Assembly (NCBI GenBank): GCA_016866475.1
Contig: VGMF01000003.1
Span: 13,442-77,441, forward strand
Length of the DNA: 64,000 nucleotides
Source: Chlamydiota bacterium
Lineage (GTDB): Bacteria; Chlamydiota; Chlamydiia; Chlamydiales; RGXB01
Direction of reading: 5' to 3'
Shown: in pieces, positions 1 to 14,471 of the stretch
How the letters are laid out: each line of letters begins with the position of its first letter
How positions within the stretch are numbered: position 1 is the stretch's first letter
Made by a program: the position numbers and the translations under genes
The notes under the pieces: generated by a model
Databases searched by the model: none
What the model was told of the DNA's origin: nothing
What the model saw: only the letters and a program-made list of their open reading frames with translations

Positions 1-331
1 TTCCCCCGTTGATCTCCGGTAGAATCAATCGATTCCGATCCCTAAATGCCGAGCTGCTTGAGATAACAAGGGACGTTTCACCCCATAAGGGTTCCATAAT
101 AAGCGCCGTTTGCGTATCCAAGCAGGAGAAAACCAGCTCCACTCCTAACTGCTTAGCTTTATAAATATCCTCAACGTTTTCCAGCCCCAAACCGTCCAAT
201 GAGTCGCCGATTTTTTGTTTGGAAGCGCTCATGAAGCGTACTTGAAAGTGAGGATGAAAAGACAACAGCTTTCGGTACATTTCGCCAATTGCCCCTGTCG
301 CCCCTAGAATGCCAACGCTAATTTTCCCCAT
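1..331 (-). CDS. asd: aspartate-semialdehyde dehydrogenase, N-terminal part (gene runs off window start)
   Basis: Not in the ORF track. Minus-strand ATG at 331-329 gives MGKISVGILGATGAIGEMYRKLL...SSSSAFRDRNRLILPEINGG. It has a GATGAxG Rossmann motif and an LPE(I/V)N motif typical of Asd. It overlaps the dapA 3' end by 28 nt and sits next to dapA/dapB. Confidence 0.8.
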   Translation of the reverse strand, partial: MGKISVGILGATGAIGEMYRKLLSFHPHFQVRFMSASKQKIGDSLDGLGLENVEDIYKAKQLGVELVFSCLDTQTALIMEPLWGETSLVISSSSAFRDRNRLILPEINGG

Positions 332-1128
332 GCTTCCTCAAGAACCGCATCAATTTTTAATTTTTCATCCTCTTGCAATGCACCTATTTCAGCTTTAACG
401 CGATCAGTCGAAAAAAGATGGTTTTTGTGTAAAATGTATTGAATTGAAAGAGGATTGACACTGACAAAAACTCTTTTCAATAAACTTAAGAGGTCCTCCG
501 AGAACGGATCAAGACACATAGCTTTTTTTACTGTCTCTACAAAAACGTTGGATAAAACGGATATTGCCCCGATAGAACCCTGTTTTTTATAGGAGACAAT
601 CCATTCGTCGTCGCCGCAAAATACAGGAATGTTTATCCCTTTCAATAGGCTTTTCCCTTGCGATTCTTTCACGCCCAAGAGATTTTTATGACCCTTTAAA
701 CTTTTATAAACCGACGTTTCGATAGCAACACCTACCCTGGAAGGGTTGTTGTATAAAATAACAGGGCAAGGTGCTTTTTCTAAAACCGTAGTGTAAAAAG
801 TAAGGATTGCCTGCTGCGTAGGTCTAACAAAAAAAGGGGGAGTCACTAGAAGGTATTGCACATCTTGCCTCTCTGCAAGATCCATATTTTTTAAAACACG
901 GTCCAGGGAAAGGTCACTCACACAAAGTCCTCTCGAGAACGGATAATCCCTTGTCGCCTGGAGCAAAATGGATTTTTCCTGATCTGTGAGTAAAGTACCT
1001 TGTCCGGTCGTCCCGGCGACAATGACCCCATCAGCCCCTTTTTTTTGATGCTGGAGAAGTTTGTGAAAAGACTTTATATCTAATCTGCCTTCGCTATCCA
1101 AGGGTGTCGCCAAAGCGGTAATCAACAT
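304..1128 (-). CDS. dapA: 4-hydroxy-tetrahydrodipicolinate synthase
   Basis: 274 aa. DapA/NAL-family pattern: VAGTTGQG, ILYNNPSR, catalytic-Lys context LLGVKESQG. Overlaps dapB by 7 nt. Confidence 0.85.
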   Translation of the reverse strand: MLITALATPLDSEGRLDIKSFHKLLQHQKKGADGVIVAGTTGQGTLLTDQEKSILLQATRDYPFSRGLCVSDLSLDRVLKNMDLAERQDVQYLLVTPPFFVRPTQQAILTFYTTVLEKAPCPVILYNNPSRVGVAIETSVYKSLKGHKNLLGVKESQGKSLLKGINIPVFCGDDEWIVSYKKQGSIGAISVLSNVFVETVKKAMCLDPFSEDLLSLLKRVFVSVNPLSIQYILHKNHLFSTDRVKAEIGALQEDEKLKIDAVLEEAWGKLALAF

Positions 1129-1727
1129 AACAACTCTCTTAAATGCACAAAACCTTTCCGTCCTGAAATCATGGGCAAAATCTGAAGAATTCCTTGTGCA
1201 AAAACTCCCCTGTCTGTAGCTTCATGTTCCAAAGTGATCTGCTCATACCCATTTTTGAAGACAATTTTGTGTTTGCCAATCGTCTCACCCTCTCTTATGG
1301 ATGAGATAGAAACCTCCCCTAAAGCCTCTTTTAGCTGAAGCGCGGTTCCGGAGGGGCTGTCTTTTTTTTCTACGTGGTGGGTCTCTTCTATAGAAATTTG
1401 CAAACCTTCTGATTTGAATTGCGGTGCTATTTGTATCATTTTTTGGACAAGCGGTGAAAAATTTGGGGAATAAAGGCAAAAGCCTCCGTTCGATTCCACT
1501 AGTTTTTGGGCCTCTTCAAGCTGATCATACCAACCGGTAGTTGCCACAACAATCGGTTTTTTTTGACTCATTGCGTACCGGATGTTTTGAAGCACACTGT
1601 CTTTAAAAGTCGCATCAATCAAAATATCTGCCATCGGAAGATCGACGACCTGATAGGAAAAAGAGGGAGCTAGGCGCAAAACCTCTTTCCCTAGCTTTCC
1701 AATTCCAAATAGACCTATTTTAATCAT
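1122..1727 (-). CDS. dapB: 4-hydroxy-tetrahydrodipicolinate reductase (short form, 201 aa)
   Basis: N-terminal GLFGIGKLG dinucleotide-binding motif and the DapB signature EETHHVEKKDSPSGTA. The N-terminal domain is shorter than in typical 250-270 aa DapB proteins. Confidence 0.8.
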   Translation of the reverse strand: MIKIGLFGIGKLGKEVLRLAPSFSYQVVDLPMADILIDATFKDSVLQNIRYAMSQKKPIVVATTGWYDQLEEAQKLVESNGGFCLYSPNFSPLVQKMIQIAPQFKSEGLQISIEETHHVEKKDSPSGTALQLKEALGEVSISSIREGETIGKHKIVFKNGYEQITLEHEATDRGVFAQGILQILPMISGRKGFVHLRELLC

Positions 1728-1799: not shown

Positions 1800-2324
1800 G
1801 TGTTTATGCAGACATGGATCAGACGATTAGAAAAATTAGAAATCCTCCTCACTTTACCGACTCCTATTTTAGAGGCTTTCGAAACGGCTCAAGTGGCTTT
1901 AAGCATCCCTAATTCCCAAAAAGAAAAAATGGTTCTTTTTCTTCCTCTCCTCACTTTTCCAATTGTTGATTTTGCGTCCGGGGCCCTCTCTATTCTTTTT
2001 TATTTTCTCATCCTTCTACTTAGCCCAAAAAAATCTCCCGCAACCCTTTTGGTCGAGATAGCCCTTCTTATAAGTTTTGCAACAATTTATCCTGCCTATG
2101 CCCCGTTTGCTTATATTTTCATGGTATCGAGCTGGATTTTGATGCACACGCCGATGTTGACCCCAATAAGTCACCCGGTGCACAGATTTTTTTGGGTTGT
2201 CCCCTTTTTAGTGTACCCCCCCCTTCTTCAAGTTTTGGCACCTGTTTTAGGATGTATCAGCTTAAGCTTCGGGATTCACAAAAAGTTTTTTGTATGGGCG
2301 GAAAATAAGCTTGGTGAGCAATAG
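1800..2324 (+). CDS. hypothetical polytopic membrane protein (about 5 hydrophobic segments)
   Basis: 174-aa ORF, very hydrophobic (L/F/P-rich) with paired TM-like segments. GTG start, with ATG alternatives at 1806 and 1815. Its 3' end overlaps the convergent 2262..3401 gene by 63 nt. No recognisable family. Confidence 0.45.
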   Translation: MFMQTWIRRLEKLEILLTLPTPILEAFETAQVALSIPNSQKEKMVLFLPLLTFPIVDFASGALSILFYFLILLLSPKKSPATLLVEIALLISFATIYPAYAPFAYIFMVSSWILMHTPMLTPISHPVHRFFWVVPFLVYPPLLQVLAPVLGCISLSFGIHKKFFVWAENKLGEQ

Positions 2325-3401
2325 ACGGTTAAACTGCTGAACTATAACCCGCAAAACGCCCTCTTCAGATGCACAAAAATCGAGTATAGTCCCCATCGTA
2401 GGGGAAAAAAGAATCTTTGCGTTATGGTTCACTATGCTTTCAGCATAAATACAATTGTTATGTAGACCAATAATGTGCTCCTGAACTCGGATTATTTTTT
2501 CAAAACACATCTTGTTCATTATATTTGTGATCGTTTCCTGTATGTGATCCAAAAGAACAAGAGAACTACCCTCATATGTTTCAACTGTAAAGAAGGACTC
2601 TAGTGAGTTTGAACTGACTGCTTTAAACCTAGCTATATGAGAAAAGGAATTTTTCGAGGAAATTGTGAGATGCTTTATAACACCCTCTTGATCGAGCTCA
2701 AGGATTGCATTCGATGTATCCTGGTAGAAAAGACGGGAGCGACCATTTAAATTTAAAATTGCCCGTACCTTTTTTTCCGTTTGGATCTCAGACACAACTC
2801 CTAAATTCGACCATAAGAGCACTTTTAGACAATTATTCGAATCAAACAAAAAAACGAAAGGGACCTCCTCACCGACCGTTTGGAGCACCTCTATGTTCGA
2901 TCCAAAATAGATCGAGGCCGTACGCCCTAACCTGAGGTTATATTTCTCCAAAAAGCCATTTTCGGTGAAAACGAGCGCATCTTCTTGTCGAAAGGAGATG
3001 ATCTGAGAAACCGTTTGTTCGAGAGGGAAGATCGCATCCCAAGCAGGCGGGGTTAAAATCACCATCTCTTTATGCTGCGATGAAAAGGGGCTTTTAAGAG
3101 AGACCACGCAAGAATTTTGCGTTTGCAGAACAGCCGTCACATTCCCAAGCTTGGCATAGGCTTCGATTGGCTCTACTACAGGCTGAAAGGATCTTTTGAG
3201 CAACTCATGAGCGTGACTTTTGTCTGTTATCGCTCCCCCAAACGAGCGCACAAGCCGTTTTCCTGCTACAAAATTTGCAATCTTGTGCAAATCGGTAGAA
3301 ACCTGAGACAATTTACACAATGATTCGGGTGATGTTCTCCCGGCTAAGTCCTCTTGGAAATCCCTTGGAAGAACAATCAGATTTAAATCAATTCCAGACA
3401 A
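2262..3401 (-). CDS. F-box-like domain protein (putative eukaryote-targeting effector)
   Basis: 379 aa. N-terminal LPRDFQEDLAGRTSPESLCKLSQVSTDLHKIA fits the F-box pattern LPxE...L...L.P.(D/E)L..L..VS(K)x(W). The remainder is beta-rich and repetitive, propeller-like. Its start overlaps the rlmD stop by 19 nt. Confidence 0.55.
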   Translation of the reverse strand: MSGIDLNLIVLPRDFQEDLAGRTSPESLCKLSQVSTDLHKIANFVAGKRLVRSFGGAITDKSHAHELLKRSFQPVVEPIEAYAKLGNVTAVLQTQNSCVVSLKSPFSSQHKEMVILTPPAWDAIFPLEQTVSQIISFRQEDALVFTENGFLEKYNLRLGRTASIYFGSNIEVLQTVGEEVPFVFLFDSNNCLKVLLWSNLGVVSEIQTEKKVRAILNLNGRSRLFYQDTSNAILELDQEGVIKHLTISSKNSFSHIARFKAVSSNSLESFFTVETYEGSSLVLLDHIQETITNIMNKMCFEKIIRVQEHIIGLHNNCIYAESIVNHNAKILFSPTMGTILDFCASEEGVLRVIVQQFNRLLLTKLIFRPYKKLFVNPEA

Positions 3402-4651
3402 CCTACAGTCTCCACATGTACCGTTTGAGGAAATAAATCGAAAGGTTGTACAGATTTGAGCTTATAGACACTTTTCAAAATTTTACAGTCCCTTGCAAAT
3501 GTAGCAGGGTCGCACGAAACGTAGACGATTTTTTTCACCCTCTGCTTTTTTAGAACTTCTAAAACCGAGCTTTCGCACCCCTTTCTAGGAGGGTTAAGGA
3601 TCACTTTATCGAAATAGCCCAGCTCCCCGATCTTTTCTTCTGCTTTGGCTAAATAGAATTGGGCATTTTGAATCAGGTTGAGTGCGCAATTTTTTTTTGC
3701 ACTCTCAATAGAACTTGCGACACACTCAATCCCGATAGCCTCTTGGCAACTCCTTGCAGCTAAAAGTGTCATAGTCCCCACTCCGCAAAATGCATCGAGA
3801 ACCCTGTCACGGCATGTCAGATCCAAAAGATCCATAACATGTTGGTATAAGAGCGGCACTTGAAAAGGATTTACCTGGTAAAAAGCATCTTTATAAATTG
3901 CAAATTTCAACCCGAGTAGGTTGTCCTCGATCAACTCCTCACCTGCTAAAAGGGTGAATTTTTTTCCAAAAACATAATTAGAATCCTGCTCTCTTTGGGT
4001 GAAGTAAATCCCCTTGACCCTTTTTTTCTCGTCTACTATTTTTTTTGCAAACCCTACTAAGGATTTACTTAGTGGTGCGTAGCTGGAGAAAATAATCAAA
4101 ATGGAATCTGTAGAAAATGCAGTTTTCATCACGAGGGTGTCCAGCTCTTTCGGGATATCCATCAAAGATATCTCTTCCAGTACTGTTTGCGAGCTCTTAA
4201 GATGCAGATGGCAATGATCTATCGGTACGAAATCTTGGCTATTTGCAGCAAAAAAGCCCAACTTGCCTCCCCTGACCGGAAGTTGCACCTTATTTCTGTA
4301 TGCAAATTCAACCGAGGGTTTCACAGCAGCGACTGTTACATCTTTTATGTCTGCAATTCTCTCGAGCGCATCCTGAATCCTTTTTTGTTTCGTCTTCAAC
4401 TGGCCTTCGTATGAAAGATGTTGCAGCTGGCACCCGCCACATTTTTCAAAGTGAGGGCAACGGGGAATCACCCTGTCGGGGGACTGCTTAAGAATCGCAT
4501 CAAGTTCCGCTTCAATCACTGAAGAGCCTATTCTTGTAGGGGTAACCGACACCCTTTCATGGGGTAAAGCTCCCTTTACAAAAAGGATTTTTTTGTCTTT
4601 GCGCCCCACTCCGAGGCCTTTGGAACTAATATCATTTATGTCGACTTCCAT
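3383..4651 (-). CDS. rlmD: 23S rRNA (uracil-5-)-methyltransferase RlmD/RumA family
   Basis: 422 aa. TRAM-like N-terminus, Fe-S Cys cluster CPHFEKCGGCQLQH, SAM motif LDAFCGVGT, catalytic region YVSCDPATFARD. Confidence 0.88.
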   Translation of the reverse strand: MEVDINDISSKGLGVGRKDKKILFVKGALPHERVSVTPTRIGSSVIEAELDAILKQSPDRVIPRCPHFEKCGGCQLQHLSYEGQLKTKQKRIQDALERIADIKDVTVAAVKPSVEFAYRNKVQLPVRGGKLGFFAANSQDFVPIDHCHLHLKSSQTVLEEISLMDIPKELDTLVMKTAFSTDSILIIFSSYAPLSKSLVGFAKKIVDEKKRVKGIYFTQREQDSNYVFGKKFTLLAGEELIEDNLLGLKFAIYKDAFYQVNPFQVPLLYQHVMDLLDLTCRDRVLDAFCGVGTMTLLAARSCQEAIGIECVASSIESAKKNCALNLIQNAQFYLAKAEEKIGELGYFDKVILNPPRKGCESSVLEVLKKQRVKKIVYVSCDPATFARDCKILKSVYKLKSVQPFDLFPQTVHVETVGCLELI

Positions 4652-4792
4652 GGATACTTTTTATTGTATAATAAGATCCTCTAAAGGTCTAACAAAGAAT
4701 GCAGGAGGCCGAAAGAACTAAAATTTAAACTAGACTATCGATCGAGTTTTGAGTTAGATTAGAGGCACTTAAGGTTTTTTAAAATTTTTTAT

Positions 4793-5368
4793 ATGATTAA
4801 ATTTTTTCTACTTCTCTCCCTGCCTCTTTTTGGGAAAGTCACCTTCGATTTTTCCCAAGATACCCCTAAGGTTCTCAGGTCGGTTTATCCTGCCATCAAA
4901 GCGGCCGAAATGCCACATGAAAAAAAAATATACACAAAAGAGATCATCCAGCACACCCACATCGCTACAGGTTTGCAATACGAGAGCCCCTCAACCGAAA
5001 ATATGGTGGATATCTCTATGAACCTAGGGATGAGCAAAAAACCTTTAGGGGTGAAGGAATCGATTTTTTACTTTTCATTTCCAAAGGTGATGATGTATAA
5101 AAAAATTGCGGCAAAGGAGAGTTTTCCGACCACCTTTTTTGGTGCAGGTTTAAGCTACGACGGGATTATAAACGATTTTTCGTCAGAGAATGCGAGATCC
5201 CTGCAAGCCGGCCTCTCTATGGGGATGGAGATAGAATCCAAAAATAAAACAAAACACCTGGTTCAGCTAGATTTGTCTAAATCTATTAGGGAGAAAGCTC
5301 TGGAACCCCAATCGGGATTAGCTCTCCCGAAAGCGGGACTTGAGCTTAGCTATGGAGCAAATTTTTAG
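4793..5368 (+). CDS. putative small outer-membrane beta-barrel protein
   Basis: 191 aa. Signal peptide MIKFFLLLSLPLFG. The C-terminus has alternating hydrophobic residues and ends in Phe (LELSYGANF), a beta-barrel OMP signature. Confidence 0.55.
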   Translation: MIKFFLLLSLPLFGKVTFDFSQDTPKVLRSVYPAIKAAEMPHEKKIYTKEIIQHTHIATGLQYESPSTENMVDISMNLGMSKKPLGVKESIFYFSFPKVMMYKKIAAKESFPTTFFGAGLSYDGIINDFSSENARSLQAGLSMGMEIESKNKTKHLVQLDLSKSIREKALEPQSGLALPKAGLELSYGANF

Positions 5369-6061
5369 ATGAGGTCTATTTTCGGTTGGTGTTTTCCACT
5401 GTATCTAAGTGCGCTTTCAATCAGCATCGACCCTTATGTTCAAGATACAAATCTTGTGCTGGAAGAAGATGTTCTTGGTTTTAATGGGCAATCGCAAGGG
5501 CTGTTTTTAAGTCTATTTGAAAAAGAGATACTCCGCCCCTATTTTAGCGGGACTGTCAATGTGTCCAAAGGGAAACTTTTTCACTATGGAGAGCCCAAGG
5601 CCCCTTTCACACAATCTATTTTAGAAGGGCAAACCGGTTACTCCTTTCCCATCAACCGTCAAGACGTATTCCGTTTTACCCCATTTTTAGGTCTTGGTGT
5701 GTACTACCAAAAGCTCTTAGGTTGGGATAGGACGGTAAGCTTTTATTGTCCTATAGGAATTGGGATCGATTACCATATCGGCGACTATTTTTCTTTGAGC
5801 TCTCTATTGACAATTCTCCCTCAAATACAAACCTTCAGACAGATGTCCGGTAGCACGTTTCAAAAAATACCCTCCTCTATCGGCTACAAAATTGAATTTC
5901 CCGTAAGTTTAGCCCTTGACCCCTATAAATATGTAGCGATTTCTATCACCCCCTTTTACAACTACTATCCTTTTGGAGCCCCGGCATTTAGTCCCCTTCT
6001 ACACAGTAAGACCGAATTGCAACAGATTGGTTTAAGGGTTGGTGTCGATGCACAATTTTAA
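5369..6061 (+). CDS. putative outer-membrane beta-barrel protein
   Basis: 230 aa. Hydrophobic N-terminus, aromatic-rich beta-strand pattern, C-terminal IGLRVGVDAQF ending in Phe. The start codon directly abuts the upstream stop. Confidence 0.55.
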   Translation: MRSIFGWCFPLYLSALSISIDPYVQDTNLVLEEDVLGFNGQSQGLFLSLFEKEILRPYFSGTVNVSKGKLFHYGEPKAPFTQSILEGQTGYSFPINRQDVFRFTPFLGLGVYYQKLLGWDRTVSFYCPIGIGIDYHIGDYFSLSSLLTILPQIQTFRQMSGSTFQKIPSSIGYKIEFPVSLALDPYKYVAISITPFYNYYPFGAPAFSPLLHSKTELQQIGLRVGVDAQF

Positions 6062-6788
6062 AGAAGATCTTAAAGAGCTATTTCTAGAGGGGATCCTGGT
6101 TGGAGAGAAAGAGAATCCGGATAGTTTTCTAAAAAGGGTACAAAAATTAAAAAAATTGCCTCTTAACAAGTTTAAGAATCCGGTTTTTGGGGTACAAACT
6201 GTCTATGTAACTGTTGAGACAAAAAAGGCTTTCATCCCCTGGTTTGCCGCCTATACAAAATTTGAATATGAGGACGGGATTGTTATTCCGAAAATTGAGA
6301 TTAGCCCATTTGCTCCGAAAGAGACAATTGACCACGAACTTGTTCATGCGGTCAAGGCTTGCCATGAAGATTCGATTTTTGAGGAATTTCTAGCTTTTGA
6401 AACCTCAACAGGGCTTCGCAGGCTTTTAGGCCCCCTTTTTTTTGACCCATGGGAGGCTAATATCCTTGCCATCACGATACTTTTAGGTTTTTTTGTCCCC
6501 TTTCTTTACATCGCCACAGTAGGGCTTTCTTTATTTTTTGCTTTGAGGCTTTGGCGGACAAGAAGGCTCTTTAATAAAGCTCTTGAGGAAATATCAAGGC
6601 TTTTCAACGCCAAAAATCCGCTCCCCTTCGCTTTGCTGTTGTCTGAACGGGAGATGAAGCTATTTGGATCAGGCCAGGGTGAATTAGCTTTGAAAGAGAC
6701 GGAAACCCAAGATACCTTAAGATACCGACAAATTTTAGCACTAAGTGCGATCAAAATTCCAGTTACATACTCCAAAAATGCCTCTTAG
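6039..6788 (+). CDS. hypothetical membrane protein with HExxH zinc-metalloprotease motif
   Basis: 249 aa. HELVHAVKACHEDSIFEEF (HExxH plus downstream acidic residues) is followed by a TM hairpin (ILAITILLGFFVPFLYIATVGLSLFFALRLW). GTG start at 6039 overlaps the upstream gene; ATG at 6048 is an alternative. Confidence 0.5.
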   Translation: MVSMHNFKEDLKELFLEGILVGEKENPDSFLKRVQKLKKLPLNKFKNPVFGVQTVYVTVETKKAFIPWFAAYTKFEYEDGIVIPKIEISPFAPKETIDHELVHAVKACHEDSIFEEFLAFETSTGLRRLLGPLFFDPWEANILAITILLGFFVPFLYIATVGLSLFFALRLWRTRRLFNKALEEISRLFNAKNPLPFALLLSEREMKLFGSGQGELALKETETQDTLRYRQILALSAIKIPVTYSKNAS

Positions 6789-13676: not shown

Positions 13677-14471
13677 ATGCAACGGACGATTCCCACCCCC
13701 CCCTGGACACAAACAGGACGGCAGATTGAGAGCCTGGTACGAAAAGCTATTCTGAAATTCGATCTTTTTAAAAAAGATCAAAAAAAAATAGGGATAGCAC
13801 TTAGTGGGGGTAAAGACTCCATGACCCTTCTTTATATGTTAAAAGCGATTAGCGGACGGGGTATTCTCCCGTTTGAAATCGAAGCCTTTCACGTAAGCGG
13901 AGCTTTTTCCTGCGGAGCCTCTCTGGCCGAAAAAATTTTACAAAAGGCTTGCGATGAGATCGAAGTCCCCCTGCACATCCTCCAATCGACTCAGACATTA
14001 GAAACTCTTGAATGCTACAGCTGCTCCAGAGAAAGACGAAAGCTCCTTTTTACCAAAGCTTTGGAAAGGGGAATTTCCACATTAGCTTTTGGCCATCATA
14101 AAGAGGACAACGTAGAAACCCTTTTCATGAATCTTTTGCACACGGCCTCTTTTGAAGGGATGTTGGCTAAAGTCCCCATGTTACGCTACGGCGTTACGAT
14201 TATCCGCCCTCTGATTTTAGTTGATGAAGCCTCCATTTTGAATTTTTCAGAACAGTATGGATTCTTACGCGTCATGTGTCAGTGTCCGGTTGGGCAAAAA
14301 TCAAGGCGCAGAACGGTTAAGGAGATCCTTAAAGACCTATCCCAGGAGTTTCCCAACGCGATCAACAACTTGAGCGAGGCCTCTTTTAAATTCGGGACGT
14401 CAAAAGCCCTCTCCCCCGATCTCAATCAGCCCCTATCCCCCGTAGGGATGATATCTGAAAACCCCTTTTAA
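13677..14471 (+). CDS. ttcA: tRNA 2-thiocytidine(32) synthetase TtcA-like PP-loop ATPase
   Basis: 264 aa. PP-loop ALSGGKDSMTLL, CxxC CYSCSRERRKLLF, and a second Cys pair CQCP, as in TtcA/YdaO. Confidence 0.8.
   Translation: MQRTIPTPPWTQTGRQIESLVRKAILKFDLFKKDQKKIGIALSGGKDSMTLLYMLKAISGRGILPFEIEAFHVSGAFSCGASLAEKILQKACDEIEVPLHILQSTQTLETLECYSCSRERRKLLFTKALERGISTLAFGHHKEDNVETLFMNLLHTASFEGMLAKVPMLRYGVTIIRPLILVDEASILNFSEQYGFLRVMCQCPVGQKSRRRTVKEILKDLSQEFPNAINNLSEASFKFGTSKALSPDLNQPLSPVGMISENPF

Follow-up and report, generated by a model that had tools for sequence, protein, structure and literature searches.

Gene X and its overlaps with rlmD and a membrane gene

The DNA under study is a 64,000-nucleotide stretch of contig VGMF01000003.1 from a Chlamydiota bacterium (GCA_016866475.1; hereafter the window). 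Its minus strand carries, at 2262–3401, an open reading frame (ORF) of 379 residues, labelled gene X, with a TTG start and a TAA stop and a product predicted to comprise an F-box and a β-propeller. An earlier sequence-only reading of this DNA had picked out the ORF, and both the frame and the N-terminal peptide quoted for it are present exactly as claimed. The gene is real and under purifying selection: the ratio of non-synonymous to synonymous substitution rates (dN/dS) is 0.167 between the window and the related locus L004, and 0.124 between L007 and L008, the first 70–75 codons being as constrained as the remainder in both pairs. Its start is placed correctly; at L001 and L003, whose proteins are ~50% identical to that of the window, an ATG occupies the exact position of the window TTG and the N terminus, MSG(I/V)(D/N)L, is that of gene X. 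Eight nucleotides 5′ of the TTG, within the rlmD coding sequence, lies a GGAG (3410–3413, minus strand), kept as GTGGAGA in L001, L003 and L004, which may act as a Shine–Dalgarno-like motif. With a G+C content of 0.415 (0.424 at third codon positions, GC3) in a window of ~43% G+C, gene X resembles the adjoining genes and so gives no sign of recent transfer; recent horizontal acquisition, which we considered, is unsupported by such native values.

Immediately upstream, in the same direction, is rlmD (3383–4651, minus strand), encoding the 23S rRNA (uracil1939-C5)-methyltransferase (TIGR00479, E 1.3e-106, 357 bits against a cut-off of 183.55), with Pfam matches to tRNA_U5-meth_tr and TRAM. The last 19 nt of rlmD are also the first 19 of gene X (3383–3401, minus strand), the TAA stop of rlmD lying at 3385–3383 and the TTG beginning at 3401, precisely the overlap that had been described. 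The same 19-nt arrangement is found at L001, L003, L004 and L010, and the junction in L007 and L008 is a 4-nt ATGA overlap, the L007-type protein having a shorter N terminus than that of the window. Near this gene pair the only promoter-like sites on the strand are at 4695–4663, upstream of rlmD; a scan for promoters and terminators returned counts no higher than chance.

At its other end gene X meets a convergent gene (1800–2324, plus strand) for a hydrophobic, membrane-type protein of 174 residues, which matches no Pfam or NCBIfam family. This protein is conserved in all relatives examined, with 26 invariant columns in six loci. The two 3′ ends overlap by 63 nt (2262–2324), again the exact length and position of the earlier claim, and the convergent overlap measures 57–66 nt in all X-bearing relatives. 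Within it, nucleotides 2286–2297 are read in aligned codons on both strands, giving PYKK in gene X and the invariant FFVW in the membrane protein. Over the whole overlap the synonymous substitution rate is 0.068 against 0.227 gene-wide, from small numbers. Since the membrane protein retains the motif IH.KF.VW in L009, a locus devoid of gene X, conservation of the disordered tail of the X protein is probably imposed by the membrane gene.

An F-box-like N terminus and a predicted propeller

The F-box-like core covers residues 11–43 (LPRDFQEDLAGRTSPESLCKLSQVSTDLHKIAN; 3273–3371, minus strand), and is supported by a PF00646 match, hhalign and the AlphaFold2 helices. PF00646 aligns these residues to profile positions 4–36 (13.9 bits, E 0.05, N-terminal fragment). 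When N-terminal stretches of 73–76 residues from the window protein and two ~50%-identical relatives are scanned against 24,736 Pfam models, the only matches are to F-box-type families (PF00646, PF12937 and PF15966), in register and below threshold (12–15 bits, E 0.025–0.2); for three of four diverged relatives scanned as N-terminal fragments, F-box families are likewise the sole Pfam matches, also in register. Two orthologues from the other, more distant subclade, P0007 and P0008 (37–38% identity, with orthology clear along the entire protein), pass the PF00646 cut-off of 20.5 bits as full-length proteins (21.8 and 21.3 bits, respectively, E ~2e-4) and score 23.2 and 22.2 bits as N-terminal fragments. 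A further relative, P0010, reaches 17–19.6 bits. The full-length scan of the window protein itself yields only a spurious DUF1854/CphA-associated match (E 0.008–0.1). The sequence-only reading had named PF00646 and PF12937 as the profiles to try; they place the window fragment in register but under threshold, with P0007 and P0008 above the PF00646 cut-off.

A home-made hidden Markov model (HMM) of four F-box sequences, run on all window ORFs, scored gene X at 4 bits and had no discriminating power, so that a profile–profile comparison was needed. Reference F-boxes from Skp2, Fbw7, β-TrCP and Cdc4 were verified against Pfam (E 1e-11 to 1e-18). Against these four, hhalign aligns the family N terminus over 35 columns with a probability of 68–75% (E 2.5e-5 to 4.6e-5). 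The family profile scores 26.5 against the verified F-boxes, z ~11 relative to 300 column shuffles (mean 8.1, s.d. 1.7, maximum 13.8), and the reversed profile scores 7.9. The spacing of conserved positions that had first suggested an F-box is thus above chance. As a single sequence, gene X comes first, weakly, of 52 plausible window proteins compared with the F-box reference (19.3, runner-up 15.9). In the hhalign register, residues L11, P12, F15, L19, A20, L28, L31, V34, L38, I41 and A42 fall on core positions of Skp2; the LP motif takes the form [LIV]-P across the family, P12 being invariant.

At the level of sequence profiles, then, F-box homology holds for the family, and the window sequence taken alone is weakly F-box-like. 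Profile homology at family level is joined by the L-P motif and by three predicted helices. Two matches from the PDB were set aside as motif-level coincidences: CroV Crov588, for which ten individually insignificant FNIP-repeat matches to a short P.SL..L motif had been summed, and a mitochondrial ribosome-recycling factor, matched over one 38-residue stretch.

An initial AlphaFold2 run on 5 sequences proved unusable (mean predicted local distance difference test (pLDDT) score 54, below 50 at the N terminus) and was repeated with 10, giving a mean pLDDT of 72.7, with 70–86 over residues 10–70 and 70–91 over residues 90–300. The model places helices at 13–21, 25–31, 36–54 and 63–70, a low-confidence segment at 73–85, and ~25 β-strands, grouped in fours, over residues 87–366. 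The first three helices precede the propeller at pLDDT 70–86, in keeping with the three-helix F-box bundle that the sequence-only reading expected of a structure prediction. Between the two domains, a helical linker (residues 44–85; 3147–3272, minus strand) contains an invariant RL.RSF.G..T motif (invariant columns R49, L50, R52, S53, F54, G56 and T59) and the start of a conserved EAYAKLG block, and corresponds in position to the helical linker of Fbw7/Cdc4-type proteins. The β-propeller (residues 86–368; 2298–3146, minus strand) is predicted to build six to seven blades from its ~25 strands, and is most highly conserved in the last blades (FEK.IR.QE..GL..N..Y.E, DFC.SEEG and QQ..R); among its conserved residues are R305, Q307, E308, D341, E346–G348, Q355, Q356 and R359.

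Searching 350,542 PDB chains with this model, Foldseek ranks Skp1-bound Fbw7, β-TrCP, Cdc4 and FBXW11 at positions 1–8 (E 2.6e-10 to 2e-9) and FBXW8 at position 10, with a probability of 1.00 for matches to propellers. Alignments to the F-box/WD40 receptors span 380–470 columns, and those to propeller-only proteins (BamB, MEP50 and the designed Tako8) ~300. In the viral library BFVD the top matches are a Hyperionvirus 'SCF subunit sconB', a Harvfovirus F-box protein and Pithovirus F-box/RCC1 proteins. That Skp1-bound chains head the list indicates, for a predicted model, resemblance rather than binding. Pfam gives the propeller no match to WD40, Kelch or RCC1, and no family member matches WD40 even at E values up to 10; every blade-versus-blade hhalign comparison gives a probability below 2%. 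Of the earlier claim of a β-rich domain with propeller-like repeats, the fold is therefore upheld by AlphaFold2 and Foldseek and the sequence repeats, of which none is detectable, are not. We regard an F-box-plus-propeller architecture for the gene X product as highly probable.

Were the F-box resemblance fortuitous, gene X might encode a lineage-specific propeller protein such as a BamB-like envelope protein. BamB is indeed Foldseek match 9 and recurs lower in the list, the single-sequence HMM evidence is sub-threshold and the crude four-sequence HMM awards just 4 bits. Such a coincidence sits poorly with two orthologues passing the Pfam cut-off, with the outcome of the shuffle control (z ~11) and with F-box proteins coming first in two independent structure libraries; nor does the N terminus, MSGIDLNLIVLPRDFQEDLAGR, contain the hydrophobic signal segment or the lipobox cysteine of an envelope lipoprotein, having no cysteine at all. 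We find this reading scarcely credible, and rejected a BamB-like lipoprotein outright for want of a signal peptide, the match being at the level of the propeller only (rank 9, ~315 aligned columns).

Distribution of gene X and its relation to RlmD

A search of 5.8 billion proteins recovers nine relatives of the gene X product (36–93% identical), and a profile search of 1.84 billion cluster representatives recovers four; neither finds a sequence relative beyond the clade to which the window belongs. All traced family members come from this one clade of uncultured chlamydiae, and those matches with a named genome or contig are metagenome-assembled genomes labelled Chlamydiae or Chlamydiia, several of them from metagenome surveys. 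Gene X occurs as one copy at a fixed position in seven further loci, and has no paralogue in the 64-kb window. The gene order is the same at every X-bearing locus: three small ORFs on the opposite strand, rlmD, gene X, the convergent membrane gene, dapB, dapA, asd, an aminotransferase and a Na/Ala symporter.

Two sister genomes, represented by loci L009 and L012, have an rlmD of 66% identity in the same neighbourhood, with neither gene X nor a remnant of it; ~60 nt separate the stop of rlmD from that of the membrane gene (L009, 5001–6849; L012, 5001–6836; compare window 1800–4651). In the more distant chlamydiae L011 and L013, rlmD has other downstream genes and gene X is likewise absent. Because L009 and L012 keep rlmD and its neighbours without it, gene X is a dispensable gene without a tie to the function of RlmD. 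It is a lineage-specific gene whose history the neighbour-joining tree of rlmD does not resolve between a single gain and a loss in L009/L012: the whole clade is recovered in 100/100 bootstraps, and the X-bearing lineages are monophyletic in 28/100. As a separate observation, the L009 contig (GCA_013558295.1, JACCDN011123169.1) belongs to a whole-genome shotgun project with contig numbers running beyond 1.1 million, probably the assembly of a eukaryote or of a very large metagenome; this could hint at a host of the clade.

These loci bear directly on a reading in which the X protein works inside the bacterium, as a cytoplasmic propeller subunit of RlmD comparable to WDR4/Trm82 with METTL1/Trm8 or MEP50 with PRMT5, its helices serving a role outside the SCF (Skp1–Cul1–F-box) complex. 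A stop–start overlap with rlmD in every X-bearing genome, whether 19 nt or 4 nt, would suit such a subunit, as would the appearance of the methyltransferase partners MEP50 and WDR4 at Foldseek ranks 15 and 30, the native G+C content and the lack of a demonstrable secretion signal. F-box proteins outrank the methyltransferase partners in both structure libraries, however, rlmD in other chlamydiae is followed by different genes, and L009 and L012 have rlmD and the same neighbours with no gene X or remnant. The obligate co-occurrence with a methyltransferase that marks the WDR4/Trm82 and MEP50 type is not seen here, rlmD occurring without gene X in L009, L012, L011 and L013. RlmD is not known to require a partner. 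On the strength of the sister genomes we rejected partnership with RlmD, and consider a bacterial-internal role in general improbable.

More speculatively, and with very little credence on our part, the X protein may not be exported at all, acting instead as a co-translated propeller partner of RlmD or of ribosome assembly; in a milder form of this idea, the gene became wedged into the ~60-nt intergenic space and came to overlap an older membrane gene by 57–66 nt that code on both strands. If the former were true, gene X would present an F-box fold with a prokaryotic, Skp1-independent function; if the latter, it would be a tractable case of a eukaryote-like effector gene becoming fixed inside a housekeeping operon. 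The conserved context, for its part, argues for co-expression of gene X and rlmD in the manner of an operon rather than for a link in function. What the sequence-only reading had termed an unusual context is consequently borne out in one respect, the overlaps being real and conserved, but extends to no functional tie with rlmD, given that L009 and L012 lack gene X.

A candidate receptor mimic, its counterparts and other genes of the window

On balance we favour a reading in which the gene X product, co-expressed with rlmD, is secreted and mimics an SCF substrate receptor, docking on host Skp1 and having a propeller-bound host target ubiquitinated. In the predicted model, this mimic has a diverged F-box (residues 11–54), joined by a short helical linker to a propeller of six to seven blades that is an orphan in sequence. 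Gene X would be co-transcribed with rlmD, its translation probably coupled through the overlapping stop and start. Its product would then pass through the chlamydial type III secretion system (T3SS) into the host cytosol, where the F-box may dock on host Skp1 within the Skp1–Cul1–Rbx1 assembly; the conserved propeller face would recruit a host protein, to be polyubiquitinated in turn. The export, the Skp1 binding and the ubiquitination of a host target are inferred. A delivery route exists, given that SctU (34280–35356, plus strand) and SctV (35353–37482, plus strand) are both encoded in the window, each above its curated NCBIfam cut-off. In gene order, sctU and sctV (34280–37482) directly follow ychF, truB and rbfA.

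Several observations weigh against this proposal. The window protein scores 13.9 bits against PF00646, short of the cut-off of 20.5, and at full length has no F-box match in Pfam or NCBIfam scans; P0005 and the L003 orthologue have no F-box match in Pfam either, and sequence and profile searches of PDB chains with gene X retrieved no F-box protein. The position of the consensus F-box tryptophan is occupied by L/I in the window subclade and by T/S in the other. The AlphaFold2 model was built on just 10 sequences, and TM-scores to FBXW structures are low to modest (0.35–0.44), for which reason we take the architecture as supported and its details and blade number as not. Finally, gene X behaves like a core gene (single copy, fixed site, native G+C), unlike known chlamydial F-box families.

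The first of these points also feed a reading in which the F-box has degenerated: the protein is exported, and its propeller binds or sequesters a host target or uses some other partner, with helices that no longer engage Skp1 and no SCF-mediated ubiquitination. The signal in the window subclade is weak (12–15 bits), the tryptophan position is not conserved, and the most conserved features of the N terminus, the invariant G21-R22 and RL.RSF.G, both lie outside the F-box consensus. Yet the LP motif, with its invariant P12, and the core hydrophobic residues are retained across relatives of 37–92% identity, the N terminus is constrained like the rest of the protein (dN/dS 0.12–0.17) and the structural matches favour Skp1-bound F-box proteins. 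We consider degeneration unlikely, though a reading to be kept in view, and retain the receptor mimic as the preferred interpretation.

The closest architectural parallels to such a mimic are the FBXW receptors (Fbw7, Cdc4, β-TrCP, FBXW11 and FBXW8), in which, as in the predicted X protein, an F-box at the N terminus is followed by a helical linker and then by a propeller, and which head its PDB matches in structure (E 2.6e-10 to 3e-9, aligned over almost the whole length). Identity to them is only 8–12%, and the X protein has neither the WD40 repeat signature nor similarity between blades. It is also shorter, with a propeller of ~285 residues and probably six to seven blades against seven to eight, lacks a dimerization domain and the conserved F-box tryptophan, and is the product of a bacterial gene. 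Thus the predicted fold has a propeller C-terminal to the F-box as in FBXW proteins, and the absence of WD40 repeats makes it an architectural analogue of that subfamily, not a member.

Among chlamydiae, F-box proteins are abundant in the Parachlamydiaceae, where they are paired with leucine-rich repeats (LRR) or tetratricopeptide repeats (TPR) and show birth-and-death evolution (Domman et al. 2014, PMC4209131). Those chlamydial proteins with an N-terminal F-box that were tested carry functional type III secretion signals in their first 20 codons (PMC4209131). The X protein shares with NEX1a and NEX2 of Neochlamydia, and with the Parachlamydiaceae F-box superfamily, an N-terminal F-box in a chlamydial protein; proteins of the NEX1a/NEX2 type have been interpreted as T3SS effectors that hijack host ubiquitination (PMC4209131). 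Members of that type have LRR or TPR partners, exist in tens to hundreds of copies and undergo rapid birth and death, whereas gene X has a propeller partner, a single copy, a fixed site between housekeeping genes and steady purifying selection. No LRR or TPR match is found in the X protein with Pfam, and it falls outside the described chlamydial F-box families.

Beyond the chlamydiae, AnkB of Legionella pneumophila and CpeC of Coxiella are translocated F-box proteins whose binding to host Skp1 has been shown experimentally (PMC7542358, PMC5703456). Like the X protein as proposed, these are bacterial F-box proteins acting through host Skp1, a step that for gene X stands as part of the proposed mechanism; they differ from it in type IV delivery and in their target-binding domains (ankyrin repeats in AnkB). 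Giant-virus F-box/propeller proteins, the best matches in the viral library (E 6.5e-11 to 1e-8), have the same two-domain architecture and likewise come from parasites of protists. These comparisons are between predicted structures only, at ~9–10% identity and with no detectable sequence homology, and do not establish an evolutionary link.

F-box proteins are a recognized route by which intracellular bacteria take over host ubiquitination, and bacterial and chlamydial F-box effector candidates are already well known; gene X adds to that class and leaves current thinking on how such effectors work unchanged. In chlamydiae the descriptions concerned amoeba symbionts, with very large LRR and TPR families of fast turnover. 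New here are the FBXW-like propeller partner, a sequence orphan, the stable single-copy inheritance and the tight insertion with overlaps at both ends, in a gene that is probably expressed as part of a housekeeping operon and belongs to a clade of uncultured chlamydiae. If Skp1 binding is true, the propeller would be a handle on the host target, and indirectly on the host, of this uncultured lineage. The clean contrast between genomes with gene X and their sister genomes without it would permit comparative tests.

Other features of the window are recorded here in their own right. Beyond the membrane gene, as seen from gene X, lie dapB (1122–1727, minus strand, 201 residues) and dapA (304–1128, minus strand), still at the left end of the window. 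The N-terminal domain of DapB appears shortened: no ORF longer than 201 residues is possible, the match to the DapB_N profile starts only at position 67 of 124, and relatives are 201–216 residues long. On the other side, divergent from rlmD, are the three consecutive small ORFs (4793–5368, 5369–6061 and 6039–6788, plus strand; 191, 230 and 249 residues), which have no Pfam or NCBIfam family and keep their place in all relatives examined; the C termini of the first two, ...ANF and ...AQF, resemble those of outer-membrane β-barrel proteins, with a weak match to OMP_b-brl (E 0.07).

Further along, IF-2 (28537–32040, plus strand) is 1,167 residues long with an N-terminal extension of ~580 residues, and at 29174–30070 within it long ORFs occur in several other frames, which suggests a compositionally biased or repetitive stretch. 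The 64-kb window also encodes two paralogous radical S-adenosylmethionine (radical-SAM) methylthiotransferases of the MiaB/RimO type (48198–49556, plus strand; 54517–55860, minus strand) and two PP-loop, TilS-like proteins (13677–14471, plus strand; 42717–43895, minus strand).

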